Assembly: GCA_963849635.1 (NCBI GenBank)
Contig: CAWKIA010000040.1
Span: forward strand, 145,022 to 209,021
Reading direction: 5' to 3'
Length of the DNA stretch: 64,000 bases
DNA from: an uncultured Chloroflexia bacterium
Lineage (GTDB): Bacteria > Chloroflexota > Chloroflexia > Thermomicrobiales > UBA6265
Shown here piece by piece: positions 1-38,720 of the stretch. The notes beneath the pieces were generated by a model, which made no database searches, was not told where the DNA came from, and saw only the letters and a list, made by a program, of their open reading frames with translations. A program made the position numbers and the translations under genes. Numbering within the stretch: the first letter of the stretch is position 1; the number at the start of each line of letters is the position of its first letter.

Positions 1-509
1 CGCCGCAGCGATTCAGCAATTTCTTGCGAACGCGTCTGTTCGACAAGGTCAACCCCGGCCATCTCTACCCGATCGGGGCGACCTCGACCTCGGACGAGGC
101 GCAGGTCGAATGCGACCGCTACGCGGAGCTGCTCGGCGCCGCGCCGCTCGATATCGTTTGCCTGGGTATAGGAGAGAACGGCCACCTGGCGTTCAACGAT
201 CCCCCGGTTGCTGATTTCCATGACCCGGCCGCCGTGAAGATCGTGGAGCTCGACGAGCCGTGCCGCCGGCAGCAGGTCAATGACGGCTGCTTCCCGGCGA
301 TCGAGCAGGTTCCCACCCACGCGATCACCCTGACCATCCCGACGCTCTTGAGCGGGACTCGGCTCGTTGCCGTCGTCCCCGGACCGGCGAAGCGCGAAGC
401 GATTCGGCGCACGCTGACTGGCCCGATCGAGACCGCCTGTCCCGCGTCGATCCTGCGCACTCATGCTGCCTGTACCCTCTACCTCGACCGCCAGAGTTAT
501 GGCGGTTGA
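1..509 (+). CDS. nagB: NagB/Pgl-family sugar-phosphate deaminase/isomerase (glucosamine-6-phosphate deaminase-like), 5' end outside window
   Basis: Frame 3 is open from base 3, and the listed start at 24 is a TTG inside that open frame. The protein contains LGIGENGHLAFNDPP, the signature loop of the NagB/6-phosphogluconolactonase family. It is followed by nagA with a short overlap. Confidence 0.7.
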   Translation, partial: PQRFSNFLRTRLFDKVNPGHLYPIGATSTSDEAQVECDRYAELLGAAPLDIVCLGIGENGHLAFNDPPVADFHDPAAVKIVELDEPCRRQQVNDGCFPAIEQVPTHAITLTIPTLLSGTRLVAVVPGPAKREAIRRTLTGPIETACPASILRTHAACTLYLDRQSYGG

Positions 510-1707
510 CCCCGGTGGGCGGCCGCTTGTGGGTCGAGACGTGTCGAGCGGCGATCCGGTCGCCGTCCACCTGGACGGCGACCGGATCGCCAGCATCGCG
601 CCATTCCCGGTGGCCGACCTTGGGAGCTTGCCGTGGATCGGCCCCGGTCTGGTCGATCTCCAGGTCAATGGGTTCGCCGGGATCGATCTGAACGACGGCG
701 TGGTGTCAGTTGAGGACCTCAGCCGTTTGGCGCGCGCACTCATGGCAGGAGGGGTGACGACCTTCCTGCCGACCGTGATCACCGCGGCCCCGGCTGAGAT
801 CGAGGCACGGGTACGGGCCATCGCCAGCGCGGTCTCCGCCGAGGCCGATCTGGCGAAAGTGGTCGCCGGAATCCACCTTGAAGGACCCTTTATCTCGCCG
901 GAGGATGGTCCGCGGGGCGCCCACCCCGCGGAGCACGTCACCCCGCCGGATTGGGCGCTATTCGAGCGCTGGCAGGCGGCCGCCGGGGGGATGATCAGGA
1001 TCGTGACACTCTCGCCTGAGTGGCCGGGTGCGCCCGCATTAATTGCTCGCTGCTCTGCAGCGGGTGTCATCGCGGCGATCGGGCATACTGCCGCCTCCCC
1101 GGAGCAGATCCGGGCGGCGGTCGAGGCCGGGGCTACCCTCTCGACCCACTTTGGCAACGGCGCTCACGCCATGCTCCCCCGTCACCCCAACTACCTCTGG
1201 GAGCAGCTTGCCGCCGACCGGCTCTGGGCATCGGTCATTGCCGACGGATTCCATCTGCCCGATGCCGTGCTGAAAACGGTCATCGCGGTCAAGGGAGATC
1301 GCGCCATCCTGGTGAGCGACGCGGTCGCCCTGGCCGGGATGCCGGCCGGCGAGTACGAGACCGCGATCGGCTCACGGGTTGTGTTGACACAGGACGGCAG
1401 GCTCCACCTCGCCGCCGATCCTCGGCTGCTGGCCGGATCGGCCAGGCCGCTGGTCGCCGGGATCGCCCACCTCGTCCGTGCCGGTCTGACCGACCTTGGT
1501 CAAGCATGGTCGATGGCGTCGACTCGGCCAGCGGCACTTCTCGGCCACCCCGCCGTGGCCGGACTAACTCCGGGTGCTCCCGCCGACCTCGTCCTGTTCC
1601 GCCATGATGACCGAAATGGGCGTTCGATCTCGATCGAACAGGTCATCAAGTCCGGGCGGAACGTGATCGGCAATGCAATACCCGCATCACTGGGAGGTGC
1701 GTCATGA
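499..1707 (+). CDS. nagA: N-acetylglucosamine-6-phosphate deacetylase
   Basis: ORF 463..1707 carries NagA-type amidohydrolase motifs: DLQVNGFAG, HLEGPFISPEDGPRGAHP, AIGHTAAS, THFGNG. The ATG at 499 (MAVDPGG) overlaps the nagB stop by 11 nt; the ATG at 463 is an alternative start. Confidence 0.85.
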   Translation: MAVDPGGRPLVGRDVSSGDPVAVHLDGDRIASIAPFPVADLGSLPWIGPGLVDLQVNGFAGIDLNDGVVSVEDLSRLARALMAGGVTTFLPTVITAAPAEIEARVRAIASAVSAEADLAKVVAGIHLEGPFISPEDGPRGAHPAEHVTPPDWALFERWQAAAGGMIRIVTLSPEWPGAPALIARCSAAGVIAAIGHTAASPEQIRAAVEAGATLSTHFGNGAHAMLPRHPNYLWEQLAADRLWASVIADGFHLPDAVLKTVIAVKGDRAILVSDAVALAGMPAGEYETAIGSRVVLTQDGRLHLAADPRLLAGSARPLVAGIAHLVRAGLTDLGQAWSMASTRPAALLGHPAVAGLTPGAPADLVLFRHDDRNGRSISIEQVIKSGRNVIGNAIPASLGGAS

Positions 1708-6985: not shown

Positions 6986-8584
6986 ATGCTGGAACGGACG
7001 AATTCGCACACGGACGTCGCCCGGCAGTTTCACCGGGCGACGAAGTACGTTTCCGTGCCTGATGCGGCGGGCGAAGAGACCTTCATGATGGGCTCACCGC
7101 CGGACGTCGAGAACGCGATCTGGGAAGAAGACTGGTCCGTCGAGCCGTTCCCCTTCAAGGTCTACGAGACGCTCGATCCGATGCCGCTGCCGCGGGATTT
7201 CCCGGCGACCGCCATGCCCGCGCTGGACGCCATCGCCCGGAGCGGCGACGAGCCGGCCGGGGAGCGCGTGCCCGATCTCGCGGCGCTCGCCCGCATCGGC
7301 CTGCTCTCCAACGGCATCCTCAAGCGCGGTTCCCACCGGCCGGGTGGCCAGGTCATCGAGTACCGCGCCGCCGGGGGCACCGGCGCCCGCTACCACCTGG
7401 AGCTGTACTTCGCGTGCGGCGACCTGCCGGACCTCGCCGCCGGTCTCTATCACTACTCCGCCCAAGACCATTCGCTGCGGCAAATCCGGAGCGGTGACGT
7501 CCGCTCGATCCTGGTCGCGGCCGCTGGACGCGAGCCCGGGCTCGCCACGGCTCCCGTCGTGCTGGCGATGACCAGCACTTTCTGGCGCAACGCCTGGCGG
7601 TACAAAGGCCGTGCCTACCGCCACGCCTTGTGGGACGCCGGCACGTGCTTCGCCAACGTGCTCGCGCTCGCCGCTTCGGCCGAGTTGCCCACCCGGCTCG
7701 TTCTCGGCTTTGCCGACGGTCCCGTCAACGACCTGCTCGGGATCGACGGCCACCGCGAAGCGACCCTCGCGCTGTGTGCCATCGGTCGGACCGGGAACGA
7801 AGCGCCGCCCGCGCCAGCCATCCCCCCGCTCGACCTTCCGACCAAAGCGATCTCCTCGTACGAGGTCGACTTTCCGGTGATCGGCTTGATGCACGCGGCG
7901 TCCACGCTTGCGTCGGGGGACGAGGCTGCGGCATGGCGGGGCGACCCACTTCGCCGCGAGACGCCCGAACCAATTGGCGACTTGATCCCACTTCGGCCGA
8001 TCCCAGACGCGGACATCCCGGCTATGTCGGTCGAGGACATCATCCGGGGCCGCCGCTCGACCCGTAACTACGACACGGAGACCCCGATCGGTTTCGACAC
8101 GTTCTCGACCCTGCTCGATCGGTCGATGCGCGGAGTTGCCGCCGATTGCCTCGCGCAGGGTGCGCTGCCGCTGCATGACCAGTACCTCATCGTCAACAGC
8201 GTCGACGGCCTGACGCCCGGCGTCTACCGGGTGCATCCGAGCCGGGGGGCGATCGAGTTGGTCAGGGCGGGAACGTTCCGGAGCCAGGCTCAGCGGCTGG
8301 CCGTCGGGCAGGAGGCCCCGGGCGACGCCCACGTGAACAGCTATTACCTGACCGAACTCGATCCCGTCTTGGAGCGCTACGGCAATCGCGGCTACCGGGT
8401 AGCGCAACTGGAAGCCGCGCTCTCCGGCAGCCGGCTCCACCTTGGAACCCATGCGCTCGGCCTGGGTGCGGTTGGATCGACCTCGCTGGATGACGAGGTT
8501 GTCGAGTTCTTCACGCCGGGTGCCGCCCGAGCGAGCTACATGTTCGTCGTCGTCTTCGGGAAACGCCGGCGCCGGTCCGGGTAG
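6986..8584 (+). CDS. SagB/ThcOx-type tandem nitroreductase-fold dehydrogenase
   Basis: ATG at 6986 lies 10 nt after GGAGGAG. The N-terminus VARQFHRATKY resembles the start of SagB-type dehydrogenase domains. The second half carries IIRGRRSTRNYD, typical of the nitroreductase fold. About 530 aa, consistent with two nitroreductase-like halves. Confidence 0.65.
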   Translation: MLERTNSHTDVARQFHRATKYVSVPDAAGEETFMMGSPPDVENAIWEEDWSVEPFPFKVYETLDPMPLPRDFPATAMPALDAIARSGDEPAGERVPDLAALARIGLLSNGILKRGSHRPGGQVIEYRAAGGTGARYHLELYFACGDLPDLAAGLYHYSAQDHSLRQIRSGDVRSILVAAAGREPGLATAPVVLAMTSTFWRNAWRYKGRAYRHALWDAGTCFANVLALAASAELPTRLVLGFADGPVNDLLGIDGHREATLALCAIGRTGNEAPPAPAIPPLDLPTKAISSYEVDFPVIGLMHAASTLASGDEAAAWRGDPLRRETPEPIGDLIPLRPIPDADIPAMSVEDIIRGRRSTRNYDTETPIGFDTFSTLLDRSMRGVAADCLAQGALPLHDQYLIVNSVDGLTPGVYRVHPSRGAIELVRAGTFRSQAQRLAVGQEAPGDAHVNSYYLTELDPVLERYGNRGYRVAQLEAALSGSRLHLGTHALGLGAVGSTSLDDEVVEFFTPGAARASYMFVVVFGKRRRRSG

Positions 8585-10362: not shown

Positions 10363-11130
10363 ATGAGCCAGGCGAATCCGTTCGCGCTCGACGGGCGCGT
10401 CGCGATCGTGACCGGCGGAGGCGGCGGGCTGGGCGCGGGGCTGTGCGCGGCGCTGGCCTCGGCCGGGGCGTCCGTCGTCGTGGCCGGTCGGACGGAGGAG
10501 ACGATCACGAACGTCGCGGCGCAGGTCGTGGCGGCGGGTGGGGCGTGTCTGCCGGTCGTGGCCGATATCGCCGATTCGGCGTCGGTCGGACGGATGGTGG
10601 AGACGGCCGTCGAACGGTTCGGTGGAGTCGACATCCTGGTCAACAACGCCGCGATCTATCACCGTCGCCCCTGGACGGAGGTCGACGAAGACGAGTGGGA
10701 CGCAGTGCTGGCGACAAACCTGAAGGGGTTTTTCCTCTGCGCCCGCGCAGCCTTCCCATCCATGCGGGAGCGGGGCAACGGGCGGGTGATCAACGTGGCA
10801 TCGATCACGGTCTTCGGCGGGGTTCCGCTTCTGCTGCCGTACGTCGCTTCCAAGGGGGGAATCGTCGCGTTCACGCGCGCGCTGGCCCGGGAGGTCGGGC
10901 CGGACGCGATCACGGTCAACACGATCTCGCCGGGGGCCTTCCCGACCGACGCCGAGAAGATCCACCCCGACCAGGAGGGGTACACCCGCATGGTGCTGGA
11001 GGCGCAGAGCATCAAGCGGCGCGGGACCGCCGAGGATATCGGGCGGCTGGCGGTTTTTCTGGCGAGCGACGCCGCCTCCTTCATCACCGGGCAGATGATC
11101 GAGATCGACGGCGGCTGGATGATGCACTGA
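10363..11130 (+). CDS. SDR family oxidoreductase (FabG-like)
   Basis: ATG at 10363 (MSQANPFALDGRVAIVTGGGGGLG), with NNAA and YVASKGG (YxxxK). Confidence 0.85.
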   Translation: MSQANPFALDGRVAIVTGGGGGLGAGLCAALASAGASVVVAGRTEETITNVAAQVVAAGGACLPVVADIADSASVGRMVETAVERFGGVDILVNNAAIYHRRPWTEVDEDEWDAVLATNLKGFFLCARAAFPSMRERGNGRVINVASITVFGGVPLLLPYVASKGGIVAFTRALAREVGPDAITVNTISPGAFPTDAEKIHPDQEGYTRMVLEAQSIKRRGTAEDIGRLAVFLASDAASFITGQMIEIDGGWMMH

Positions 11131-12922: not shown

Positions 12923-15412
12923 TTGATTCCGACAATGCCTCGTTCCCGACCCCAGGCCGAGCCACAGGTACAACCACAGCCGCAACCACTGACGCCGCCG
13001 CCGCGAGCGAGTGCCCGGCTACCGGTTCCCCTGACGCCCTTCGTCGGGCGCGAGGACGAGGTGGATCTCGCCGTGTCGCTCCTGCGCCGCGACGAGATTC
13101 GGTTGCTCACCCTGACCGGTTCGGGTGGCGTTGGCAAGACCCGGATGGCGATCAAGGTTGCGGGCGATCTCGCCGCCGAGTTCGCCGATGGCGTCGTTTT
13201 CGTTCCCCTTGCGGGTCTCGCCGATCCGGAGCGCGTGGGCGACGCGGTCGCGACCGCACTGGAGATCGGTCAGGTCGGCGTCCTTCCATTGCGGGAGGTG
13301 CTGCTCACGGGTCTGGCCGCCGCGAACGTGCTGCTGGTGCTCGACAACTTTGAGCACCTTCTGCCCGCGGCCGATCTGGTGACCGACATCCTCCTGACCG
13401 CGCCGCTGGTCAAGATCATGGTCACAAGCCGGACGTTACTCCGAGTGTCCGGGGAGCAATCGTTCCCGGTGCCGCCACTTGGCCTGCCGGACCCTGGAGA
13501 CGGCGTATCGCTGGCGGAGGTCATGAAATCGCCGGCGGTGCGGGTTTTCGCGATGCGGGCGGCGTCCGTCGTGCCGTCGTTCGCCATCACCGAGACGACC
13601 GCGCCGGTGGTGGTCGACATTTGCCGCCGGCTGGATGGCCTGCCGCTGGCGATCGAGCTGGCCGCGGCCCGGGTCAACGTCCTCCCACTCTCCGCGGTGC
13701 GTGACCGGCTGGACCGACGCTTGCCCTTGTTGACCGGAGGTTCGCGAGACGCCCCGCGCCGCCATCAGACCATGCGCGATGCGATTTCCTGGAGCTATGG
13801 CCTGCTTACCGAGGACGAGCAGACAGTTTTCCGGCGGTTGGCCGTCTTCGCCGGGGGGTTTACGCTCGACGCCGCCGAGGCGGTCGGTGATCCCGCCAGC
13901 GAGGCATCGGAACGCAACCATGGGGCTGAGTCGACTGCTGGATCGGCTGTGGGCATTGCGTCGGGTTTCTTGCGCGAGCACCGTCGATTGCGGTTGTCCG
14001 TGCTGGAAGTTGTGGGGTCTCTGGTCGACAAGAGCCTCCTCCACCAGGAGGCGTCCCCGACAAACGCACCGAGGTTCAGCTTGCTTGAGACGGTGCGTGC
14101 CTATGCGCTTGAACAGTTGGAGGCAAGCGGCGAGTTATCCGCCGCGCGGCGCCTACATGCTGACTGGTGCCTGAGATTTGTCGACGAGTTCGGACATGGC
14201 TCGCTTACGATGCTGGCGGAGCTGTCGTGGTTGCCGGCGGTCGAAGCTGAGCACGACAATGTTTTGGCAGCGCTCGCCTGGTTGGAGGGCAGCGGCGATG
14301 TCGTTGGAATGCTTCGCCTAGCGTCTGCGGTGCGGCCTCTGTGGGAGGTGAGGGGGCACCACGAGGAGGCGATCGCGCAGCTTGAGCGCGGGCTAGCACT
14401 TGGCGGTCACGATGGCAGGGTCCCGATCGCCATCCGGATGACGGCATTGGCCGGCCTGGGGCGCCACTACATGCGACAAGGAAAACTCGACGCGGCGCAC
14501 GCTCGGGTTCAAGCGTCGTTGGAACTCGCCGAGGTCCTGGGCGACCGCGAGGCGATGGCGACCATGCTCTATGCCATCGGCGGGGCGGAAACCAACCGGG
14601 AGCAGTATGACCGTGCGACCCCGTATCTGGACCAGGCACTTGCCATCTATGAGCAGCTCGACGTTCCGGTCGGGATCTGCGGGTGCCATTACTTTCGCGG
14701 CATCGGCGCGTATGGTCAGGGGAGAATGGCCGATGGGGTTGCCGAGATTGAGGCCGCGGTGCACGTCCGGCGAACACGCGGACCGGTCTACAACCTCAGC
14801 GTTCTGCTCAACGCGCTTGGCCTCCTCCTTAGCGAATCGGGAGCGGTCGAGCCGGCGATGGCTGCCCTGACCGAGAGTCGTACGGTCTGGCAATTGGCCG
14901 CCGGAACGAACCGGGAAGTGCAGGCCGAGTGGCTGGCCGCGGCGGCGCTCCTGGAACGCCGGCGCCACAAGCCCTGGTTGGCCGCACGGCTTTATGGCGC
15001 GGCGGAGGCGCTCACCGAGCTGGCGGGCGTGCCATTGGTGGTGCCGCCGCCAAGCCAGTATGCCCGGCTGGTGGCCGAACTCCGTGCGGAGCTTGGGGAC
15101 GAAGCGTTTGCGCGCGCGTGGTCCTCGGGTCGGGCACTGAGCGCCAAGGATGCGGTCGAGGAGGCGTTGGCGCCTCCGTCGGATCCGGCCGATGGAGCCG
15201 CCGCGACGCTCACCTCACGTGAGCTGGAGGTGCTCACGCTCATCGCTCGGGGGAAGTCCGACCGCACGATCGCCGAGGAGCTGTTCGTCAGCGTGCGCAC
15301 GGTTGAAGGACACGTGGCCCGCATTCTCACCAAGCTCGGTGTTCGATCCCGTGCGGATGCGGCCCGACATGCCGTTGCCGGTGGTCTTGTCGGACGGAGC
15401 GAACTAGACTAG
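12923..15412 (+). CDS. STAND ATPase / TPR / LuxR-family transcriptional regulator (R1)
   Basis: 829-aa ORF with Walker A LTLTGSGGVGKTRMA and Walker B LLVLDNFEH. It has a long helical-repeat middle and a C-terminal LuxR HTH (LTSRELEVLTLIARGKSDRTIAEELFVSVRTVEGHVARILTKLGV). The start is uncertain (12923 or 12935). Confidence 0.85.
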   Translation: MIPTMPRSRPQAEPQVQPQPQPLTPPPRASARLPVPLTPFVGREDEVDLAVSLLRRDEIRLLTLTGSGGVGKTRMAIKVAGDLAAEFADGVVFVPLAGLADPERVGDAVATALEIGQVGVLPLREVLLTGLAAANVLLVLDNFEHLLPAADLVTDILLTAPLVKIMVTSRTLLRVSGEQSFPVPPLGLPDPGDGVSLAEVMKSPAVRVFAMRAASVVPSFAITETTAPVVVDICRRLDGLPLAIELAAARVNVLPLSAVRDRLDRRLPLLTGGSRDAPRRHQTMRDAISWSYGLLTEDEQTVFRRLAVFAGGFTLDAAEAVGDPASEASERNHGAESTAGSAVGIASGFLREHRRLRLSVLEVVGSLVDKSLLHQEASPTNAPRFSLLETVRAYALEQLEASGELSAARRLHADWCLRFVDEFGHGSLTMLAELSWLPAVEAEHDNVLAALAWLEGSGDVVGMLRLASAVRPLWEVRGHHEEAIAQLERGLALGGHDGRVPIAIRMTALAGLGRHYMRQGKLDAAHARVQASLELAEVLGDREAMATMLYAIGGAETNREQYDRATPYLDQALAIYEQLDVPVGICGCHYFRGIGAYGQGRMADGVAEIEAAVHVRRTRGPVYNLSVLLNALGLLLSESGAVEPAMAALTESRTVWQLAAGTNREVQAEWLAAAALLERRRHKPWLAARLYGAAEALTELAGVPLVVPPPSQYARLVAELRAELGDEAFARAWSSGRALSAKDAVEEALAPPSDPADGAAATLTSRELEVLTLIARGKSDRTIAEELFVSVRTVEGHVARILTKLGVRSRADAARHAVAGGLVGRSELD

Positions 15413-15537: not shown

Positions 15538-17952
15538 ATGCGGACGGTGTGCCGGGCGTCTCGTGGTCGGGTGCCTATGCCGTTGACGGCGCTATTCGGC
15601 CGGGAGCAAGAAGCGGCGCTTGCCGTTTCGTTGTTGCGGCGGGACGATGTGCGCCTCTTGACGCTAACCGGGCCGGGTGGAGTCGGTAAGACTCGGCTGG
15701 CGATCAAGATCGCGGACGAGGTCGCGGAGCTGTTTCGCGACGGCGTCCGGTTTGTCTCGCTGGCGGCGGTGACCGCCGATGACCAGGTCGCCATAACCAT
15801 CGCCCACGCGTTTGGGTTAGTCGGGGCCGGCGACATTCCCGTGCTGGACACCCTGACGGCGTATCTGCGCGATGCCGACCTGTTGCTCATCGTCGATAAC
15901 CTTGAGCATGTGCTGGAAGCAGCTCCTCTCCTGACTGTTCTCCTCGGGGAATGTCCGCGTCTCAAGATCCTGGCAACAAGCCGGACCCTGTTGCGGCTCG
16001 CCGGCGAGCAAGCCCTCCCGGTGCCGCCGCTGGGAATGCCCGAACCAAGCTCGGAGACCCTGTACGAAGAGATCACCGATTCGGCCGCGGTCGCGCTCTT
16101 TGTCAACCGGGCGCGGGCTGTTTCGCCGTGGTTCGACCTGACCGCGGAATCGGCGCCTGTGGTCGCCGAGATCTGCCGGCATGTAGACGGCCTGCCGCTG
16201 GCGATCGAGCTGGCGGCGGCCCAGATCAGGGTGCTTGCGCCGCTGCAACTGCTTGAGCGGGTACGCGCGCACTTGCCGCTCCCGCTCACCGGTCCGCGCG
16301 ATGTGCCGGTGCGCCTGCGCTCCGTGCGTGACGCGGTCGCCTGGAGTTACGGTCTGCTGACGGCCGACGAGCAGTCGCTCTTCCGATGCCTTGGCGTCTT
16401 CGTCGGCGGCTTCGGGCTCAACGCCGCCGAAGTCGTGAGTCGTGAGTCGAGAGACGTGAGTAACGAGACGGCGAGCAGTTCTCATGACTCACGACTCACG
16501 ACTCACGACTCAATGCTTGACGGCCTGATCTCCCTCGTCGAAAAGAGTCTGGTGAAGCAGGAGCCCTGGGAGGGGGAGTCCTGGGTGGGAGAGCCCCGCT
16601 ACTCCATGCTCGAGACTATCCGCTCGTTTGCGCTGGACCAATTGATCGGGAGCGGTGAGGAGGACGCGGTGCGCGATGCGCACGCGGAATGGTGTTTGAG
16701 CCTGGCGGAGGGGACCCTCCAGGCGACCTTCCTTCCGGGTGGTCAGCAGGAGTTGTGGCGCCTGGAAGTCGAGCATGCCAACCTGCGGGCCACGCTCAAT
16801 TGGCTCGATCGACGGGGCGACCACGATCGCCTGCTGCACCTGGCTACCGCGCTGGGCCGGTTCTGGTTCTTGCACGGTCACTACGATGAGGGGCGCTCGT
16901 GGTTGGAACGGGCGTTAAGTAACTCCCAGGGAGCCGCGCCCCTCGCCCGGGCTCAAGCGCAATATGAGCTGGGCCAACTCCACTACGTCCAGGGTGAGCG
17001 GGAGTGTGGCGAGGCGCTCTTGGAGAAGAGCATCGATGTCCTGCGCGAGCACGACGACGTCCTGCCGCTCACAGGTGCGCTCATTTGGAAGGCCTGGACC
17101 GCGATCTTCCGCGGGGACTACGATCAGGCCGAACGCGATCTTGAGGAGGCCATTGGCTGGGCGGCGACCGTCCCGGATCCGGCGGTCGCCGCCTCCGCGA
17201 CAAGCAGGGTGCTGTCGAACCTCGGCGTGGTCGCGCACGAGCGGGGTGACCTCGAGACCGCCCGTGCGCGGCACGAACGGGCCCTGCACACCTGCCGCGA
17301 GCTCGGCGACGTCATCGGCGTCATCCGCTCGTTGCACGACCTCGGCGATGTTGCCTGTGACCAGACCGACTACACCGGAGCGATCGCCTCCTACCGCGAG
17401 TGCCTGACGCTGCAGGGCAATCGGATGCATCCACTCGTCGTCGTTAATGTGCTGGCCAGATCGGCGCTGGCCGCGGCGGCCTGGGGGCAACCGGAACGGG
17501 CGGCGCGGCTGCTGGGCGCGGCGGAAACGGCGCGCGAGCGGTTCCGGCTCGGGGTTGAACTGCCGGCCGAGCGGGCCGCGCACATGCGGGCGGTCGCGCT
17601 CGTCCGCCTGGCGTTGGGAGAAGAGAACCTCCGAGCTGCCTGGCAGGCCGGGCGCCGTCTTCCCCTGGCGACGGCCATCGCCGAGGTGCAGGCCCTGGCG
17701 CTGCCCGCGGCGGCCGCCGGGGCCATCGACCGCCCCTCCTCCGGGCTATCGCCCCGGGAGGAGGAAGTCCTCCGCCTCCTCGTGGCTGGCCAGTCCGATC
17801 GCGAGATCGCCTCGAAGCTCTTCATTAGCGTGCGCACCGCAGAGGGACATGTCTCCCGCGTCCTCGCCAAGCTCGAGGCTCCATCGCGGGCAGATGCCGT
17901 CCGCATCGCGACCGCGTCCGGGCTGACTGCCGGGCTTCACCGTCCCAAGTAG
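15538..17952 (+). CDS. STAND ATPase / TPR / LuxR-family transcriptional regulator (R2)
   Basis: 804-aa ORF with [24 protein letters not shown] and a C-terminal LuxR HTH ([45 protein letters not shown]). The start is uncertain (15538 or 15577). Confidence 0.85.
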   Translation: MRTVCRASRGRVPMPLTALFGREQEAALAVSLLRRDDVRLLTLTGPGGVGKTRLAIKIADEVAELFRDGVRFVSLAAVTADDQVAITIAHAFGLVGAGDIPVLDTLTAYLRDADLLLIVDNLEHVLEAAPLLTVLLGECPRLKILATSRTLLRLAGEQALPVPPLGMPEPSSETLYEEITDSAAVALFVNRARAVSPWFDLTAESAPVVAEICRHVDGLPLAIELAAAQIRVLAPLQLLERVRAHLPLPLTGPRDVPVRLRSVRDAVAWSYGLLTADEQSLFRCLGVFVGGFGLNAAEVVSRESRDVSNETASSSHDSRLTTHDSMLDGLISLVEKSLVKQEPWEGESWVGEPRYSMLETIRSFALDQLIGSGEEDAVRDAHAEWCLSLAEGTLQATFLPGGQQELWRLEVEHANLRATLNWLDRRGDHDRLLHLATALGRFWFLHGHYDEGRSWLERALSNSQGAAPLARAQAQYELGQLHYVQGERECGEALLEKSIDVLREHDDVLPLTGALIWKAWTAIFRGDYDQAERDLEEAIGWAATVPDPAVAASATSRVLSNLGVVAHERGDLETARARHERALHTCRELGDVIGVIRSLHDLGDVACDQTDYTGAIASYRECLTLQGNRMHPLVVVNVLARSALAAAAWGQPERAARLLGAAETARERFRLGVELPAERAAHMRAVALVRLALGEENLRAAWQAGRRLPLATAIAEVQALALPAAAAGAIDRPSSGLSPREEEVLRLLVAGQSDREIASKLFISVRTAEGHVSRVLAKLEAPSRADAVRIATASGLTAGLHRPK
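16431..16512 (+). repeat. In-frame heptamer-armed perfect hairpin inside R2
   Basis: 16431-16449 AGTCGTGAGTCGTGAGTCG is the exact reverse complement of 16492-16510 CGACTCACGACTCACGACT. The arms are tandem GTGAGTC / GACTCAC heptamers. Confidence 0.9.
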
Positions 17953-27957: not shown

Positions 27958-30630
27958 TCAGACGAGGCGGTGCCGCATGGCGTGGGCCACCGCGGCGGAA
28001 CGGGAGGGTTGGCGAAGTTTGGCTAGGATCGCCGAGACATGCGTTGAGGCGGTGCGGCGGGTGATGGAGAGTGCGGCGGCGATCTCGCGGTCTGACTGAC
28101 CGCCGACCAGCAGGTGCAGAACTTCCATCTCGCGGGGCGTCAACCCGGCGTGCAAGGACGGCGGGTGGCCGTCGGACAAGGGAGTATCTTCTGCCCTGGC
28201 CTCGCCGTCGTCTGCTTCGCCGCCGGCCACGGCAATCGCCTCGGCGACGGCGTCGGCAAGCGGCAGCGCGGCGCCTTCTACCCAGGCGGCCGCAAACCCC
28301 GCGGCCCCAAGCGCTGCCTGGGCGTCGGCCTCGATTTGGTCGTGCATCGCCTGCTCCTGTGGTGCGAGTCGCGCGCCGACCACCTCGCGCAGCGTTGCCG
28401 CCGCGCCCAGCAGCCTCGTCGCCTGCTCGGCCCTCCCCACCAGGGCGGCGACGCCGGCTTGGCCCATCAGCCCCCAGGCGATCCCCGTTCTGTCGCCGAG
28501 CGAGACCGAAAGGGCCAGAGCCTCGGCCTGGGCGCGCCTCGCACTACGCCCATCGCCGCGTGCCAGGGCGAGATGGCCAAGCTCATCGAGCACGCCGGCA
28601 ACGAACCGCCAGTCCTGCCGCTCACGAAAAACCGCCAGCGCTTCCTTGAGGTAGACGTCGGCGCGGACATGGTCGCCCTGAGCGAGCGCCAAAATGCCCT
28701 GCTTGCTTCTGGCGAGGGCGGCGCCCCATGTATCGCCAATAGCTCGGAAGTGGGCGAGGCTCTCCGCCAGCAGCGGCTCCGCCTGAGGCAGCTCTTCTCG
28801 ATCGACCGCGTCGCTACCCAGGCCGTACAGCGCCATCGCCACGCCCCACGCGTCACCGAGGGAACGCGCCAGTGCCTCTGCCTCACCGTGCCGGGAGAGC
28901 GCATGCTCGTTGTCTTTCTGCCACGCCGCGATGTCCCCCGCGACGATGAGCGCCCGGATCCGGACAAGTGAGACGCCTTCGACCTCCGGCAGCGCCAGGA
29001 ACGAGTCGAGCCAGGTGCGACCCTCACTCAGGAATCCGCGTCTCCACCAGAACCGCCCGGGGGCCGTGGCGAGTCGGAGCCCCTCTGCTATGCGCCCCCG
29101 TACGCGCAGCCAGCCCAGCGCAGCCCGCAGGTTGGGAAGCTCCTGCTCTAGCAGGTCGAGCCAGGCGAGTTGGTCGGGGCCGATCAGGTGCGGCTCTGCC
29201 TCCGCCGCCAGTGCCAGGAAGTAGTCGGCATGGGCGTCGTGGGCGGACTCCGCGTATCCGCTCGCCGCCAGGTGCTCCAGGGCGAACTCGCGGATCGTCT
29301 CCAGCATCTCAAAGCGCGGGGGAACGATGTCGGACCCGTCGGCCAGCGGCTCCATAGATCGCAGCAGACTCTTGTCCACCAGCGAGGCGACCACGTCGAG
29401 CGTCGAGCGTTGTGCGTCGAGAGAACTACTTGCCGTCTCGTCTCGCCCGACGCTCGACGCTCTCCTCACGACTTCCGCGGCATCGAGCGTGCACCCCCCG
29501 ACGAACACCGCAAGGCGCCGAAAGAGCGACTGCTCCTCGCTGGTGAGGAGATCGTAGCTCCAGGCGATCGCACCGGCCATAGTCTGGAGTCGCGTCGGCG
29601 CGTCGCGCGGCCCGCCTGTCAGGAGCGGCAGACGGCGCTCCAGGCGCGCCAGGAGCGCCGGCGGCGAGAGGAGGTTCATTCGCGCGGCGGCCAGCTCGAT
29701 CGCCAGCGGCAGGCCGTCGAGGCGTTGGCAAATCACCGCGACCGCGGTGGAGTTACCGTCGGTGAGGCGGAAGTCGGCGTTCACCGCCCGTGCTCGCTCG
29801 ACGAAGAGACGGACTGCCGCCGGCCCGGCCCGCTCCTCGGCCGGCGCGAGTTCCCGCTGAGCCTCCACGTCAGGATCGCGCAGCGCCAACGGAGGCAGGG
29901 CGAAGACGTGTTCACCCGAGACTCGCAGCCGGGCGCGGCTTGTGACCAGCACCGTCAAGCGCGGGCAGGCCGTGAGCAGCTCCGGCAGGAGAGGCGTCGC
30001 CTCGACGACGTGCTCGACGTTGTCGAGGACCAGCAGCAACTGGCGGTCCCGTAGGGCCATGGTCAGCGTCTCGATCAGCTGCCTATCGACTGACTCGCGC
30101 ACACCAAGGGCCTGAGCGATTGTTGGGGCGACCAGAGCGGGCTCGCGGACCGGTGCCAGCGGCACGAAGACGACCCCGTTCGCGAAGTCGCCGCCCAGCG
30201 CCTCAGCAACGTGCAGGGCGAGGCGGGTCTTTCCCACCCCACCGGGACCGGTCAGCGTCAGGAGGCGGATATCTTCCTGGTGCAGCAGCGCGCAAACCGC
30301 CGCCACGTCGCGTTCGCGGCCGATGAGCGGCGTCAGCGGCAGCGGCAGCCGCGCGGCGCTATTCGCGCCGAGTCGGTCGGTGGTCAGCCTCTGAGGCAGA
30401 GGCGGGTGGCGACCCAGGAACCGTGTCAACGCGGCCGGCGTGATCCGGTAGACGCCGCCATGCTTCGTCGCGGCCAATTCACCGCCGACGATGGCACGCC
30501 GTACCGTGCGCTCGCTGACCCCGAGCGCAGCTGCCGCCTCGCGGGCCGTCAAGCGTCCGGACGGGCGCCGCGCGGACCGAGATTTGTCCGGTCGTTTGTC
30601 CGCCGGAATGTCCGCCGGGATCTTGCTCAT
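27958..30630 (-). CDS. STAND ATPase / TPR / LuxR-family regulator with extra N-terminal excisionase-type HTH (R3)
   Basis: ATG at 30630 (MSKIPADIP). The N-terminal HTH is [46 protein letters not shown]. It also has [24 protein letters not shown], and a C-terminal LuxR HTH ([43 protein letters not shown]). Confidence 0.85.
29395..29465 (-). repeat. In-frame heptamer-armed hairpin inside R3 (counterpart of the R2 element)
   Basis: On the plus strand, GTCGAGC occurs twice (29395-29408) and GACGCTC twice (29449-29462). 29398-29410 GAGCGTCGAGCGT is the exact reverse complement of 29450-29462 ACGCTCGACGCTC. Confidence 0.9.
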
Positions 30631-30969
30631 GGTGGGCGTATCATGCCCGACATCGCCCGTCGCAGCAAGGAAAGCGGGCCACGTTGCTGCGTCGACGCGG
30701 ATCGACTGAAGACGGCTCGAACCGGCCAAAATGGCGTGGTCGTACCGCCATCGCACAAGTAAACTCCGGAGCTGAAACGAGGGCCGGGGGGCGAGTGCAT
30801 CGCCTGCGCGACACCGGCGAATCCTAATGTCAGTTGGCACGTCCGGCAGCGACAGGCAAGGCTCGTCTACCGAGAGCCGCCAGCGATTCGATAGGCTGCC
30901 CCTTGACGCCGGGAACTCGCGCTATCATCTTCGTGTAGTCCCGCAATCCTGTGACGTCGAGGTCGCCTC

Positions 30970-33506: not shown

Positions 33507-34631
33507 TCAGCGATGGTACTTGCGCATCACCTCCTGCAGCCGGGATAGCGGAATCGCATGGGAGGTGCGGCCGGCGACGCCGGTGGTCGTCGTCGCCATG
33601 CACAAGGCGTTGACGATCGCCTCCTGGGTCGCGTCGGCGACGGCTTCGAAGAGCACGCTGATTGCGTCGTTTGGAACCATCTGGACGGTGGCGGGCGCGA
33701 TCGTGCCGCGCGCATCCAGACCGCGAGCCGCGGTTGAGAATGCCAGGAAGAGGTCGCCGCTGCCGTTGTCGCCGTTACCACCAACACGGGCGACCCCCAT
33801 GGTCGCCCGTTGGGCAATTCGCTTGCACTGGTGCGGGAGGAGCGGCGCATCGGTCGCGACGATGACGATGATCGACCCGTCGCCCGCCGGCTTTGCCCGC
33901 TGCGATGGCACCTCCGACAATGGGATCTCTCGTCCGACGGGGACGCCGTCGACGTGGAGGTGCTCCCGCCAGCCGTAGTTGGCCTGGACGAGCACGCCGA
34001 CGGTCCATCCGCCCTGATCCGCCGGCAATACTCGCGACGATGTCCCCGTCCCGCCCTTGAATTCGTGGCACAACATCCCGGTGCCGCCACCGACGCAACC
34101 TTCCGCGACGGGGCCGCTCGCGGCCGCGTCGAGCGCGGCGAAGACGTGCTCCGGTTTGACATGGAAGCCGTGCATATCGTTGAGCCAGAGGTCGCTCGTC
34201 TCAGCGACGACCGGCAAGCGCCACGGCATCGTACCCGGGCCGTTCCAGCGGGAGACATCGTAGGCAACCAGGGCGTCGCGGACAACGCCGACGCTGTGGG
34301 TGTTCGTGATCCCGACGGGTGTCGTCAGCAGCCCCGACTCCTCGACCCAGTGGAGCCCGGTCATCTCGCCTGCGCCATTTAGCCGATGGTAGCCGGCGAA
34401 CACAGGCTCCGCCGCGATGTCCTCGCGTGGGACGATCATGGTGACGCCGGTGCGCACCGGTCCCTGTCCGATCACCAGCGGGCCATCGCCCGCGATCAGG
34501 GTTGTATGCCCGACGCGGATCCCATCAACATCGGTGATCGCGTTCCATCGCCCGGTGGCGAACCGGCCGATGCTGATACCGAGCTCACGTGCACGCACTC
34601 GCACCTCCGTAGGTGCGGCCCCTGTCCCCAT
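33507..34631 (-). CDS. P1/S58 family peptidase (DmpA-like L-aminopeptidase/D-esterase)
   Basis: Start trimmed to MGTGAAP. The protein contains NAITDVDGIRVGHTT, GGTGMLCHEFKGGTGTSSRV and VATDAPL, typical of the DmpA/BapA family. Confidence 0.8.
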   Translation of the reverse strand: MGTGAAPTEVRVRARELGISIGRFATGRWNAITDVDGIRVGHTTLIAGDGPLVIGQGPVRTGVTMIVPREDIAAEPVFAGYHRLNGAGEMTGLHWVEESGLLTTPVGITNTHSVGVVRDALVAYDVSRWNGPGTMPWRLPVVAETSDLWLNDMHGFHVKPEHVFAALDAAASGPVAEGCVGGGTGMLCHEFKGGTGTSSRVLPADQGGWTVGVLVQANYGWREHLHVDGVPVGREIPLSEVPSQRAKPAGDGSIIVIVATDAPLLPHQCKRIAQRATMGVARVGGNGDNGSGDLFLAFSTAARGLDARGTIAPATVQMVPNDAISVLFEAVADATQEAIVNALCMATTTTGVAGRTSHAIPLSRLQEVMRKYHR

Positions 34632-34809
34632 TCGAGCCCTCCATGAAAATGAGTATCCGGGCCGTTGTAAGCGATTGACCACCACTGAGACCCATCATAT
34701 ACTGCGGCCCACGCTCGGCGAGTCCCATACGTTGACCCATCGCCCGTTCTCCGGCCTTTGCTGTCAGTGCGCTGCACAACAGCCCGGAGACATCACCAGG
34801 GGAGGCAGA

Positions 34810-36453
34810 ATGGTGTCGAAGTCCGCGTCGTCGCTCAACCGTCGACGGTTCGTCCAGGGCAGCGCGGCGCTGTCCGCTGCGCTGGCAATGAGCCGTCCAG
34901 CGTTCTCTTCAAACGCCGGCGCCCAGGAGGGCGGCGAACAGGTCTTGCGGCTGGCCTGTGAGGAGCCAGAAACGTTCGACCTGGGGACGATCGGTGGTGG
35001 GATCGGTATCCAGTGGGCCAATCACCTGTTCGAAGGTCTCGTTGTTTACGACTGGGAGAATCAGCAGGTTGTGCCGGGCGCGGCCGAAACCTGGGATATC
35101 TCCACCGACAATCTGACCTATACCTTCCATCTTCGCCCGGGGATGCTCTGGAGCGACGGTTCGCCCCTGACTGCCCACGATTTTGAGTACGCGATCAAGC
35201 GCAACCTTGAACCCGAATTGGCTGGGCCGCTTGCCACCTTCCTCTACCCCTTGAAGGGCGCGGAGGACTATTTCGTTGGCACCACCACCGACCCGGCGAC
35301 GGTCGCGGTGACGGCGACCGACGACGTCACCTTAGAGATGACGCTGATCGGGGTGACGCCGTACTGGTTGAGCATCCTCTCCCTCTGGACCGCGATGCCG
35401 ATCCCCAAGGCGGCGATCGACGCCGCTGGCGTGCAGTGGATGGAGGCCGAGACGATCGTCAGCAACGGCCGCTACACGATGGAGTCGTGGGAGCACGACC
35501 AGAGTCTTGTCATGGTCCAAAACGAGAACTACTACGGCACGAAGCCCAGCGTCACCCGCATCGAGTACACCATCTTCGAGAACCCACCGGAGCAAGCCCT
35601 CACGGCCTTCCAGACCGGCGATGTCGATCTTGCCCAGGTGACGGTCGCCAACGCTGACTTCGTCGCTGGCGATTCTGAGCTCAGCGCCTTACAGATTCGC
35701 CAGGAGGTCTCTGGGACGTGGGAACTGCGGCTCGACATGGCCAACGCGGACTCGGCCATTGCCGACGTCAACGTCCGCAAGGCGCTCTACCTGGCGATTG
35801 ATCGTGAGGTACTCACCCAAACCGTGCTCAAGGGGTTCATGACCCCGGCCTACATCTTGACGCCGCCCGACATCCCGTCCCACGATCCGGCCGGTCGCCT
35901 TGAAGGGACGGTCGAAGACGCTAAGCAGTATTTGGCTGACGCTGGATTCCCCAATGGCGATGGGTTTCCCGGTATTCAGCTTGGCTTTGCCGCGGCTCAG
36001 GAGAATGCGCAACTCGTCTCGGAGGCGATCGTCCAACTGTGGAACGACAACCTCGGGATCACGAACGCGACGGCGTTTGCCGTTCCGACCGACTGGCGGA
36101 CGCGGATCAGGACCGAGCCCTATGACATGTACCTCGGCCAGTGGGTGACAGACTATCCAGATCCGCACGAGTGGCATAACGTCGTCCACGAAGGCGACGC
36201 CTGGCAGAGCCACTGGAAGGACCAGACCTATCTCGACATGATCGCCGCGGCCAACGTCGAGGTCGATCCCGCCAAGCGGCTCGAACAGTACGCCGCCGCC
36301 GAGGCCTATATGATCCGCGACCAGACGGCGACGATTCCGCTCTACACCGTCGGTCGCTTCTGGGTCATCCAACCCTGGGTTCAGGGCCTGGCGCTCTCAC
36401 CGTACGACGGCCCGATTCTGACCACGAACGCGGTGACGATAACCGATCAGTGA
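34810..36453 (+). CDS. ABC transporter substrate-binding protein, family 5 (peptide/nickel type)
   Basis: ATG at 34810 follows GGGGAGG. The Tat-like signal is MVSKSASSLNRRRFVQGSAALSAALAM. The ~548-aa length and sequence fit DppA/OppA-type SBPs. Confidence 0.85.
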   Translation: MVSKSASSLNRRRFVQGSAALSAALAMSRPAFSSNAGAQEGGEQVLRLACEEPETFDLGTIGGGIGIQWANHLFEGLVVYDWENQQVVPGAAETWDISTDNLTYTFHLRPGMLWSDGSPLTAHDFEYAIKRNLEPELAGPLATFLYPLKGAEDYFVGTTTDPATVAVTATDDVTLEMTLIGVTPYWLSILSLWTAMPIPKAAIDAAGVQWMEAETIVSNGRYTMESWEHDQSLVMVQNENYYGTKPSVTRIEYTIFENPPEQALTAFQTGDVDLAQVTVANADFVAGDSELSALQIRQEVSGTWELRLDMANADSAIADVNVRKALYLAIDREVLTQTVLKGFMTPAYILTPPDIPSHDPAGRLEGTVEDAKQYLADAGFPNGDGFPGIQLGFAAAQENAQLVSEAIVQLWNDNLGITNATAFAVPTDWRTRIRTEPYDMYLGQWVTDYPDPHEWHNVVHEGDAWQSHWKDQTYLDMIAAANVEVDPAKRLEQYAAAEAYMIRDQTATIPLYTVGRFWVIQPWVQGLALSPYDGPILTTNAVTITDQ

Positions 36454-36461
36454 GCTGATTG

Positions 36462-36574
36462 AGGCGTTAGGCGTTAGGGGAACGGCCCCCTAACCCCCCG
36501 GCCCCCTTCCCCCTGCTGCGGCAGGGGGAAGGGGGTGACGCCCTGCCACTCCGAGCGGCTAACTCCTAACGCCT
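36462..36574. repeat. Composite REP-like palindromic element between SBP and permease genes
   Basis: The outer arms are GGCGTTA GGCGTTA (36464-36477) and CTAACTC CTAACGC C (36559-36573), pairing 10 bp plus 5 bp. An inner hairpin GTTAGGGG..CCCCTAAC is present. A perfect 15-bp hairpin CCCCCTTCCCCCTGC tgcg GCAGGGGGAAGGGGG spans 36502-36535. Confidence 0.75.
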
Positions 36575-36588
36575 AAGGGCACCTGTTC

Positions 36589-37515
36589 ATGCGCGCATTT
36601 CTCATCCGGCGATTGCTCAGTTTTATTCCCACGATGCTACTCTTCTATACCCTTGTTTTCATCCTGATCCAGTTGACGCCGGGGAACCCGTGGGACACCG
36701 CGGAGAAGCCGTTCCGGCCGGAGGTGCTCGCGGCCCTCGAAGACAAATACAACTATAGCGACCCGGTCTGGAAGCAATACGTCGATTACCTGGAGCGCGT
36801 CGTCTTTCATCTCGACTTTGGCCCCAGCTACAAGCGGAATGTCGATTCCAACGAGATCGTTGCGCGCTATTTCCCGGTGTCGCTTCAGCTTGGCGCCGTC
36901 GCCTTTGTGATCGCGATGGTCTTCGGCATCGGGCTCGGCGTGCTCTCCGCGGTCAGGCAGAACACCATCACGGACCATCTGGCGATGCTCTTCTCGGTGA
37001 TCGGAGTGGCGACGCCGAGCTTCGTCGTAATTACGCTAATGGTGATTTTTCTGGCGGTTGAGCTCCAATGGCTGCCCGCCTTTGGCTGGGATGGGATCTT
37101 CAGTACTCGGATCATCATTCCGGCGGTCGCGCTTGCGTTAGGACCGATGGCGGTGATCGCACGGTACACGCGGGCGTCGATGCTTGAGACGATCCGCCAG
37201 GACTACGTCCGGACCGCCCGCGCCAAAGGTCTGGGCGAACGCCCGGTGATCATTCGCCACGCATTGCGTAATGCCCTGATCCCCGTCGTGACCGTCGCGG
37301 GGGTAGCGCTCGCCGACCTGATCACCGGTTCGTTTTTCGTTGAAGCGATCTACGGCGTTCCCGGGATGGGCCGCTACTTCGTCAGCACGGTGGCAGATAA
37401 GGACTACCCGGTGCTGATGGCCGTCACCCTTCTGTTTGCCGCGCTCATCTGGCTAATGAACTTCCTGACCGATGTCGCCTACGCGGTCCTCGACCCGCGC
37501 GTGAAGGTGAAGTAA
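36589..37515 (+). CDS. ABC transporter permease (DppB/OppB-like)
   Basis: 308 aa, with N-terminus MRAFLIRRLLSFIPTMLLFYTLVFILIQLTPGNP, multiple TM segments and an EAA-type loop region. Confidence 0.9.
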   Translation: MRAFLIRRLLSFIPTMLLFYTLVFILIQLTPGNPWDTAEKPFRPEVLAALEDKYNYSDPVWKQYVDYLERVVFHLDFGPSYKRNVDSNEIVARYFPVSLQLGAVAFVIAMVFGIGLGVLSAVRQNTITDHLAMLFSVIGVATPSFVVITLMVIFLAVELQWLPAFGWDGIFSTRIIIPAVALALGPMAVIARYTRASMLETIRQDYVRTARAKGLGERPVIIRHALRNALIPVVTVAGVALADLITGSFFVEAIYGVPGMGRYFVSTVADKDYPVLMAVTLLFAALIWLMNFLTDVAYAVLDPRVKVK

Positions 37516-38477: not shown

Positions 38478-38720
38478 GGCGTTGGGCGTTCGATGGTTGC
38501 TTCCAGCCGAACGCCGAACCCCGTCAGGAGGAACTGCGCATACCCACCAACCGTCATCCTGAGCTTGCGAAGGATCTTGGCGCTTCAGCGCCTTCGTCCT
38601 CGTTGGAGAAGACGAAGCTTCGCGGTCGGCAGCAAAGGCCGTGAACGGCCAAGATCCTTCGCTCCGCTCAGGATGACAGGTTGCCTGTTGCAGACGCACA
38701 ACGCCCCAACCCTTAACTCC
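38478..38720. repeat. MITE/REP-like palindromic element (GTCATCCTGAGC family) with GGCGTT heptamer flank
   Basis: It starts directly after the stop codon with GGCGTTG GGCGTTC (38478-38491). There is a local hairpin GGCGTTCG..CGAACGCC (38485-38492 / 38508-38515). The long arms are 38553-38580 GTCATCCTGAGCTTGCGAAGGATCTTGG and 38649-38677 CCAAGATCCTTCGCTCCGCTCAGGATGAC (12 + 14 bp perfect). The right flank is AACGCCCCAACCC. Confidence 0.75.

Follow-up and report, generated by a model that had tools for sequence, protein, structure and literature searches.

Here, we describe a translated inverted repeat in R3, a gene for a STAND/LuxR-type regulator carried on a 64,000-nt stretch of DNA from an uncultured Chloroflexia bacterium (assembly GCA_963849635.1, contig CAWKIA010000040.1, positions 145,022–209,021 of the forward strand; hereafter, the window). 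Two arrays of 7-nt tandem units, inverted relative to each other, flank a short apex inside the reading frame, and a diverged counterpart occupies the homologous site of the paralogous gene R2. The most likely origin of the element lies in errors of DNA copying, and not in the evolution of a dedicated RNA signal. The specific reading that we favour, and to which we give about an even chance, is that R3 contains a translated "coding palindrome" of inverted tandem-unit arrays, which slippage and template switching would have built, and kept paired, within a permissive loop. The palindrome was probably seeded by adjacent Leu-Asp codons (CTCGAC); on this reading, the mutational process is the main reason why the arms still pair, and a function of the hairpin is not required. 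R3 is weak as a lone instance, yet it is part of a widespread pattern that has apparently gone unremarked before.

The R3 hairpin and its counterpart in R2

Direct reading of the sequence agrees with a preliminary description of this element. On the plus strand, GTCGAGC occurs at 29395–29401 and again at 29402–29408, GACGCTC at 29449–29455 and 29456–29462, and a further copy, GTGCGTC, at 29412–29418. The segment 29398–29410 (GAGCGTCGAGCGT) is the exact reverse complement of 29450–29462, giving 13 bp with 39 nt between the arms, and the translation of the open reading frame (ORF) through the element on the minus strand is likewise as described there. In a repeat search, the pairing can be extended to 19 nt at 89% or to 30 nt at 73%. 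Each R3 arm has two perfect units only. Tandem Repeats Finder delimits period-7 arrays at 29394–29421 (4.0 copies, 80% match) and 29444–29462 (2.7 copies, 91% match); apart from these, period-7 arrays reach 2.7 copies in the 64 kb only in the R2 arms, at 16431–16461 and 16481–16512. The 3′ arm of R3 adjoins the conserved Leu-Asp-Val codons CTC GAC GTG (29392–29400), whose sequence is that of the repeat unit CTCGACG. This arm reads CGCTCGA-CGCTCGA-CGTGG, that is, ...CAA CGC TCG ACG CTC GAC GTG in codons and CTCGACG-CTCGACG-TG in the 7-nt register.

Seven places in the window hold a perfect inverted repeat that pairs over 13 bp or more and whose loop does not exceed 60 nt, compared with 0.2 expected from order-2 Markov simulations, and R3 is the shortest among the seven. 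Its folding energy by itself is modest and unremarkable for 67% GC: −51 kcal/mol as RNA (z = −2.5, with 2 of 200 shuffles equally good) and −26.8 kcal/mol as DNA (z = −1.1). The R2 element is far stronger, at −55.5 kcal/mol as RNA (z = −6.9). That R3 is not a chance structure follows from a conjunction of features, namely that it lies in a paralogue at the codon position of the R2 element, that all four arms are periodic in heptamers, and that the two elements share an apex (GAGACGGCNAGNAGTTCTC) found at two places only in the window, R2 and R3. When metagenome contigs were scanned for the 21-nt apex ACGAGACGGCNAGNAGTTCTC, a single match was obtained, in a low-GC alanyl-tRNA synthetase gene without a hairpin, and it was rejected as a further copy and attributed to chance.

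The R2 and R3 genes are 46% identical at the protein level and 56% at the DNA level. Their elements align without gaps over 93 columns at a homologous codon position and have 19 of the 21 apex nucleotides in common, which upholds the proposal that one is the counterpart of the other; that a local duplication artefact is not the explanation also holds. RNAalifold predicts a common 19-pair hairpin, in which four pairs are doubly changed and none is broken. Three of these four compensated pairs (alignment columns 24/82, 31/75, and 38/68) represent one heptamer position, recurring 7 nt apart in successive units of both arms, and therefore the compensations are not independent. When the units are rotated into one register, GTCGTGA of R2 and GTCGAGC of R3 are each one base away from GTCGAGA, which is the third R2 unit and also the unit of P0152-type elements and of an array in a purL-like gene that is described below. 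From this comparison, the differences between the R2 and R3 arms appear to be one or two unit-level changes spread through both arrays. The longest exact match between R2 and R3 is 11 nt within the element and 29 nt in a conserved protein motif; a recent gene-conversion tract was rejected on these lengths.

The loop of R2 (16438–16515) has 26 codons (78 nt). A third paralogue, R1, has an even longer loop at the homologous site, which forms no significant hairpin (z = 0.09) and encodes a peptide (SEASERNHGAESTAGS) that resembles that of R2 (SRESRDVSNETASSS); it is possibly the relic of a decayed palindrome. A multi-sequence DNA alignment of the R1, R2, and R3 loops with those of two loci from the survey below (L003 and L011) was also tried and was unconvincing beyond R2 and R3.

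In its domain organization, R3 comprises, according to Pfam, an HTH_17 domain, an NB-ARC/AAA NTPase, a winged-helix region, TPR repeats, and a C-terminal GerE/LuxR HTH, and the region that matches the insert site is annotated in homologues as HTH_77 (PF25872). The loop has 22 codons in R3, double the 11 codons usual in homologues. An AlphaFold model of a 208-residue R3 segment (mean predicted local distance difference test score, pLDDT, of 81) renders the insert as coil between helices 85–93 and 113–122, with the least confident block (segment residues 101–110, mean pLDDT about 51) lying inside it. Foldseek searches with the same segment gave weak matches (best E = 0.012, none at E ≤ 0.001), which suggest a resemblance to the region of STAND/NLR (NB-ARC) proteins that comprises helical and winged-helix parts and to MarR-type winged helices; a PDB sequence search returned no match. 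Judging from the low-confidence coil between helices and from loop lengths of 12–135 nt among homologues, the insert appears to occupy a structurally tolerant, exposed position of the fold. A rationale in protein structure for the residue pattern, which had been named as one finding that would overturn a nucleotide-level interpretation, is not apparent. No close orthologue of R3 was found in protein collections or GTDB genomes, where the best matches have 58–68% identity.

Long loops across the STAND/LuxR family

For comparison, we surveyed 90 homologous sites in 81 loci (L numbers), mostly from metagenome-assembled genomes (MAGs) of Chloroflexota, Acidobacteriota, and Actinomycetota. At half of the sites (45/90), 33 nt separate the flanking anchors, and the separation ranges from 12 to 135 nt; R3 has 66 nt, R2 78 nt, and R1 117 nt. 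None of the 90 lengths departs from a multiple of three. In loops no longer than 36 nt, folding is not in excess (mean z of −0.2 compared with −0.4 for control segments from the same genes, n = 70). Among the 12 loops of at least 60 nt, six form strong hairpins (L002, R2, L023, L001, L003, and R3) and six do not (R1, L009, L011, L021, L063, and L064). Since loops of the usual length are unstructured, the family as a whole does not conserve the hairpin, which makes up a subset of the long loops. Compared at the DNA level, the hairpins at homologous sites share a common architecture without a conserved element sequence (Table 1). Between L001 and L002, which are 55% identical in amino acid sequence, 26 pairs are kept, of which 3 are compensated, 3 are changed on one side in a wobble-compatible manner, and none is broken. 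In typical members, the loop ends in (G)LDVLDG, encoded by ...CTCGACGTGCTCGACGGC, and one to three TCGA-containing (L/I/V)D codon pairs are present at its 3′ edge. The one strain pair available (L087/L088), which concerns a gene other than R3, is identical in sequence.

To extend the survey to protein sequences, we scored each loop for whether reverse-complementary DNA could specify its two halves, with z ≥ 2.7 counted as compatible; known hairpins scored z = 2.7–5.1 and known non-hairpins z ≤ 1.2. A word-based search yielded 113 homologues with 17 loops of at least 18 residues, 6 of which passed this threshold. In an exhaustive search, the top representatives provided 147 sites with 96 long loops, a set biased to long loops, and 30/96 passed, compared with 4/96 control windows of 36 residues from the same proteins. 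Several recurrent peptide classes are three-frame read-outs of tandem units: SRESRVESR...SRLSTLD of (GAGTCGA)n / (TCGACTC)n, ELRIENEE...FSILHSQFSIL of (GAATTGA)n, and VMGDG...SPITHHPSP of (GGTGATG)n. The family comprises 84,776 representative clusters at E ≤ 0.001.

The inserts are coding sequence in which an open frame takes precedence over pairing. Over any 21 nt, translation of a heptamer array passes through each of its three frames, and both (GTCGTGA)3 and (GAATTGA)3 would give an in-frame TGA; in R2 and L001, the third units are altered to GTCGAGA and GCATGAA, respectively, which removes the stop at the price of a stem mismatch. The (GAGCGTC)n array and its complement are stop-free in every frame. 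Stop avoidance and the multiple-of-three lengths indicate that the inserts are translated, which argues against bypassing, excision, and frequent frame-shift switching. Programmed translational bypass of the T4 gene 60 type was rejected in particular, as the insert is open and in frame, stops are avoided, and the lengths are multiples of three throughout.

Features of a dedicated RNA or DNA signal were also examined. The sense strand folds about as well as the antisense strand, and which of the two has the edge varies from case to case; a test for a sense-strand-specific G·U pairing signature was negative, so that the hairpins carry no mRNA-specific signature. Rfam returned nothing at gathering score and sub-threshold matches to generic hairpins only (mir-242, 29.7 bits compared with a threshold of 54), and neither a terminator nor a promoter was found. 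In the R2 and R3 sequences, which were read directly, no direct repeat flanks the palindromes as a target-site duplication would. The R3 unit TCGAGCG resembles the SARP heptamer TCGAGxx, which raised the possibility that the heptamers are sites of SARP-type regulators. Heptameric repeats of this kind are treated in PMC5930380. The possibility was set aside, as the DNA-binding domain of the host proteins is of the LuxR type rather than the OmpR type and no gap separates the units.

In two loci on long ENA contigs (L003 and L086), two to four neighbouring ORFs (NB-ARC / HTH_77 / TPR) together make up each homologous STAND gene, probably because of assembly indels or because the genes are pseudogenes. 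The breaks in L003 lie away from the hairpin, and splits of this type account for the many short "proteins" on long contigs in the protein search.

Table 1. Position and composition of the R3 element, its paralogues in the window, and unit arrays at homologous sites of other loci
Feature	Position	Strand	Period	Description
R3 host gene	27958–30840	minus		Intact 960-aa STAND/LuxR-type regulator; from ORF, translation, and Pfam
Expanded loop of R3	29401–29466	minus		22 codons, residues 459–480, between helix ...LDAAEVV and the next helix
Imperfect inverted repeat, full extent with weaker outer pairs	29395–29472	minus		30-nt arms, 73% complementary; minimum-free-energy structure
5′ arm, coding strand, GAGCGTCGAGCGT	29450–29462	minus	7	Within heptamer array 29444–29462
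Apex core GAGACGGCAAGTAGTTCTC	29421–29439	minus		GAGA/TCTC mini-stem with 11-nt loop; encodes part of DETASSS; R2 match at 16465–16483
3′ arm, coding strand, ACGCTCGACGCTC	29398–29410	minus	7	Within heptamer array 29394–29421
R2 hairpin	16431–16512	plus	7	In paralogue 15538–17952; arms (GTCGTGA)n / (TCACGAC)n around an R3-type apex
R1 loop, homologous site	13886–14002	plus		In paralogue 12923–15412; 39 codons (117 nt), longest of the three paralogues
L001, L002			7	(GAATTGA)n / (TCAATTC)n
L003			7	(CAGTCGA)n; 3′ arm decayed
L023			7	(GGAGGAC)n / (GTCCTCC)n; −78 kcal/mol
L085			8	(GGCGGCGA)n
L087			8	(AGTCGAGS)n / (CCTCGACC)n; best R3 homologue, 68% identity
L089			8	GTCGA-containing units (GTCGAnnn)

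Origin of the paired arms

Under the slippage and template-switching reading, the process would start at the 3′ edge of the loop, which in the GC-rich genomes, as can be read from their sequences, consists of Leu-Asp codons (CTCGAC), often repeated, with a self-complementary TCGA core. Replication slippage would duplicate a unit with this core, 7 nt long or, in some relatives, 8 nt; the R3 unit CTCGACG, which has the sequence of the Leu-Asp-Val codons, would have been copied once upstream. Because TCGA is self-complementary, direct repeats of a unit that contains it are already quasi-palindromic, and such repeats would give rise to a quasi-palindrome. Intramolecular template switching could then copy one arm into the other, creating or re-perfecting the stem and spreading unit variants to both arms. 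The survivors would be the in-frame, stop-free versions, as the observed frame and stop avoidance show, with the insert translated as a Ser/Arg/Asp/Glu/Thr-rich linker that is predicted to be disordered. A palindrome that is not renewed would decay to an ordinary long loop, for which R1 and the other long loops may be examples. In the AT-rich GAATTGA class, AATT would play the role of TCGA.

Template switching is documented to produce, in a single step, perfect stems and compensatory changes of several bases without selection for each pair (PMC8794818), and to homogenise the arms of inverted repeats inside coding sequence (PMC8604942). Heptanucleotides are reported as the most abundant long class of simple sequence repeats (SSRs) in bacteria (PMC4679880). 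The arms of R3 lie 39 nt apart with the matching CTCGACG codons next to the 3′ arm, R2 and R3 differ from each other by coordinated multi-base changes that affect both arms unit by unit, and the R3 arrays consist of head-to-tail 7-nt copies, as detected by Tandem Repeats Finder.

Several observations weigh against this reading. A palindromic loop is present in roughly 3–7% of the family, whereas about 0.85 Mb of neighbouring genes gave one in-frame case; per gene, the winged-helix loop is enriched for palindromic arrays by more than an order of magnitude, which makes it a strong hot spot. Given the hot spot, a purely neutral process must lean on the unproven argument that seeding and permissiveness combine at this site, and seeding by palindromic cores is not the whole story, since some units (GGTGATG and GGAGGAC) are without such a core. 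Pairing persists at merely 46% amino acid identity between R2 and R3 and at merely 55% between L001 and L002, whose arms have a third-position identity of 0.73–0.80 compared with 0.54 for the gene and so evolve more slowly than synonymous sites. The R2 and R3 inserts are 72% identical (86 columns counted) and the genes 56% (binomial P = 0.002), which is well above the expectation for unconstrained sequence at such divergence. The conserved R2/R3 apex also counts in favour of the rival explanations, as does the recurrence of an apex motif, GAGAAC(C/G)G...GTTCTC, above unrelated arms in L001, L011, L085, and L087 (its form in R2 and R3 is GAGACGG...GTTCTC). Furthermore, in a poorly resolved neighbour-joining tree the hairpin-bearing copies are scattered, with R3 grouping with L003/L011 and R2 with R1, and the comparison set holds no orthologue of R3 itself.

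A broader alternative, which we regard as somewhat unlikely, is that inverted tandem-unit palindromes constitute a distinct, undescribed class of small elements in one STAND/LuxR loop across Chloroflexota, Acidobacteriota, and Actinomycetota, which would either propagate themselves, by targeted insertion or biased conversion, or be retained as mRNA or DNA structures. R2 and R3 would then be diverged copies, and the apex GAGACGGCRAGYAGTTCTC would be the recognition site.

Retention of a structure would mean that the hairpin is a selected, cis-acting element of the mRNA or of single-stranded DNA, such as an RNase III-type processing site, a translational pause in the winged-helix domain, or a cruciform or protein-binding site, with pairing and apex under purifying selection; we think this rather unlikely. 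It would account for compensated and never broken pairs in two independent homologue pairs (R2/R3 and L001/L002), for an apex and an insert that are more alike than the old paralogues around them (19/21 nt, and 72% compared with 56%), for the raised third-position identity in the L001/L002 arms, for the strong enrichment at a single site of a single family, and for a peptide without a protein-structure rationale. Set against these, most of the family is without the hairpin and loops of usual length are unstructured, half of the long loops, including that of R1 next door, lost their pairing or never had it, and R3 barely beats its shuffles in folding energy. A sense-strand bias is absent, the Rfam gathering score is not reached, no terminator or promoter was found, pairing is given up where a stop codon has to be avoided, and the compensations are unit-wise and not independent. 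The preliminary description had taken arm-encoded residues that differ around a shared peptide core as the pattern expected if nucleotide pairing, rather than the peptide, constrains the arms. Its first half stands, in that pairing is a real nucleotide property, seen in the 19-pair R2/R3 hairpin (4 compensated, 0 broken) and in the 26 pairs of L001/L002, and the peptide, a coil insert, is no explanation for it. The step from kept pairing to selective constraint is unsupported, given unit-wise changes, unstructured usual loops, strand symmetry, and precedence of frame over pairing.

Propagation would require a small element that is selfish, whether as a palindromic insertion, non-autonomous and targeted to this context, or as a palindromic loop that spreads among paralogues by biased gene conversion, so that R2 and R3 would be copies of one element and not an inherited loop. 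We regard this as unlikely. In-frame palindromic insertion has a precedent in Rickettsia (PMC10969869), and R3 shares its apex and left junction (GAAGTCGTGAG) with R2 even though in this region it is closer to outside homologues (63–68%) than to R2 (52%). The scatter of hairpin-bearing copies in the poorly resolved tree also fits, as do the (GAGTCGA)n/(TCGACTC)n arms of the purL-like gene, with matching GAAGTCG and CTCGAC junctions, and the recurrence of the SRESR...SRLSTLD and ELRIENEE...FSILHSQFSIL classes in representatives that are less than 50% identical. On the other side, there are two copies only in 64 kb, both at homologous sites, and the apex core has one chance match only in the metagenome contigs. 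Target-site duplications and conserved termini are absent, arm units differ widely from case to case, linkage to a transposase is not consistent, and the 11-nt exact match, shorter than those in conserved motifs, gives no sign of a recent conversion tract.

Finally, it is very improbable that the arrays act as a slippage-driven on/off switch (a contingency locus), in which gain or loss of 7 nt would shift the frame and truncate the regulator before its TPR and LuxR parts: the unit length is not a multiple of three, hairpins promote slippage, and 4.6 copies at 96% match make up the 3′ arm of R2, but the perfect units in R3 number just two in each arm, none of the 90 homologous loops is out of frame, the P0127 gene is identical over 2571 nt in two samples, and known contingency tracts are longer and homogeneous.

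Similar arrays, known palindromic repeats, and implications

Outside the loop, 0.93 Mb were scanned for inverted heptamer arrays and about 0.97 Mb for inverted-repeat clusters in general. In a Chloracidobacterium MAG (L044:249–295), a purL-like gene contains an in-frame (AGTCGAG)n / (CTCGACT)n hairpin that encodes VESRESGxSRLSTLD; its junctions are GAAGTCG on the left and CTCGAC on the right, as in R2 and R3, and its apex contains masked bases (NN). A Thermomicrobiales MAG has an intergenic hairpin of (GAGTAAC/GAGTAGC)n and (CTCGTTA)n units (L049:10976–11048), between the end of a gene and the start of an acetyltransferase-like ORF, which folds with its flanks (10965–11060) at −58.8 kcal/mol; the GAGTAAC unit is also present in the inner left arm of R2. 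In the window itself, an intergenic structure at 36462–36576 separates a solute-binding-protein gene (34417–36453) from an ABC permease gene (36589–37515). The arms of its outer stem are heptamer repeats, (AGGCGTT)2.4 and TAACTCC-TAACGCC, and enclose a perfect 15-bp GC-rich hairpin at 36502–36535 (RNA z = −5.1 for the whole). Its position is comparable to that of the repetitive extragenic palindromes (REPs) first described in the mal operon of E. coli. In Nostoc, small dispersed repeats are reportedly associated with heptameric repeats and hairpins (Elhai et al. 2008, Genome Res 18:1484).

Two further palindromes were recorded in the window. The longest perfect inverted repeat, a 20-bp palindrome at 550–591 (GGCGATCCGGTCGCCGTCCA-TG-TGGACGGCGACCGGATCGCC), lies within an amidohydrolase-family ORF (463–1707, plus strand) and encodes GDPVAVHVDGDRIA, which makes it another coding palindrome. 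An intergenic inverted repeat of about 125 nt at 38553–38677 has the termini GTCATCCTGAGC... and ...GCTCAGGATGAC. Similar termini are found at hairpins in Chloroflexota MAG loci (L036:3512–3597, L021:1345–1484 and 7657–7779, and L085:6983–7126), and together these look like a dispersed family akin to miniature inverted-repeat transposable elements or REPs.

One close precedent is provided by the Rickettsia palindromic elements (RPEs), the protein-coding palindromes of Ogata et al. (2000, 2002), which, according to the review in PMC10969869, are about 150 bp long, fall into defined families, and have 44 insertions in unrelated Rickettsia conorii genes. RPEs and the R3-type inserts are alike in that palindromic DNA keeps the frame of a functional gene and adds a translated peptide to its product at a place that the fold tolerates, and in that related copies are also intergenic. 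Unlike the RPEs, the R3-type inserts measure 33–100 nt, consist of 7–8-nt tandem units that vary by case, are concentrated in one loop of one protein family, and derive partly from the flanking codons. Nor do they show the copy number of RPEs: the apex core occurs twice in 64 kb, with one chance match in metagenome contigs and differing arm units. As to placement, R2 and R3 occupy homologous sites of paralogues, and one similar in-frame array lies in the purL-like gene of another phylum.

A second precedent is quasi-palindrome or template-switch mutagenesis (PMC8794818; PMC8604942; PMC7202029), which likewise involves nearby reverse-complement copies whose arms are homogenised in multi-base steps that mimic compensation, acts inside coding sequence, and needs no element-encoded enzyme. 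The cases described are mostly single events that perfect a short stem, whereas here the process would be iterated together with unit slippage, with stems of 20–40 bp that recur at one protein site across phyla. The bacterial heptanucleotide repeats (long SSRs, cyanobacterial short tandemly repeated repetitive sequences, and TAACTGA repeats; PMC4679880) resemble the arrays in having few tandem 7-nt copies, which are occasionally read through as 7-residue peptide repeats via all three frames, as here. They are mainly direct, intergenic, and species-specific, whereas the present arrays are inverted around an apex and translated. The REP, BIME, and REPIN families (PMC3116915, PMC3733652) share with R3 the character of short imperfect palindromes; REPs are extragenic, high in copy number, equipped with a conserved head sequence, and linked to RAYT transposases, whereas R3 is intragenic, present in two copies, and shows no conserved head. 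R3 is accordingly not a REP or REPIN by these marks, and a RAYT transposase was not seen, although no search aimed at one was made. Our literature search found no description of inverted tandem-unit coding palindromes of the R3 type.

If slippage and template switching did build these elements, the loop would be a natural record of how the two processes together make long, perfectly paired stems, and it would show how apparent "compensatory" evolution and new peptide segments in working genes can originate, which bears on the use of covariation as evidence for functional RNA structure. With 84,776 clusters in the family and about one third of the long loops palindromic-looking, the process is open to statistical study. 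If the hairpins were instead selected or self-propagating, they would represent a new class of small elements carried within signalling regulators. An in-frame hairpin of the R3 type, when met in annotation, need not mean regulation.

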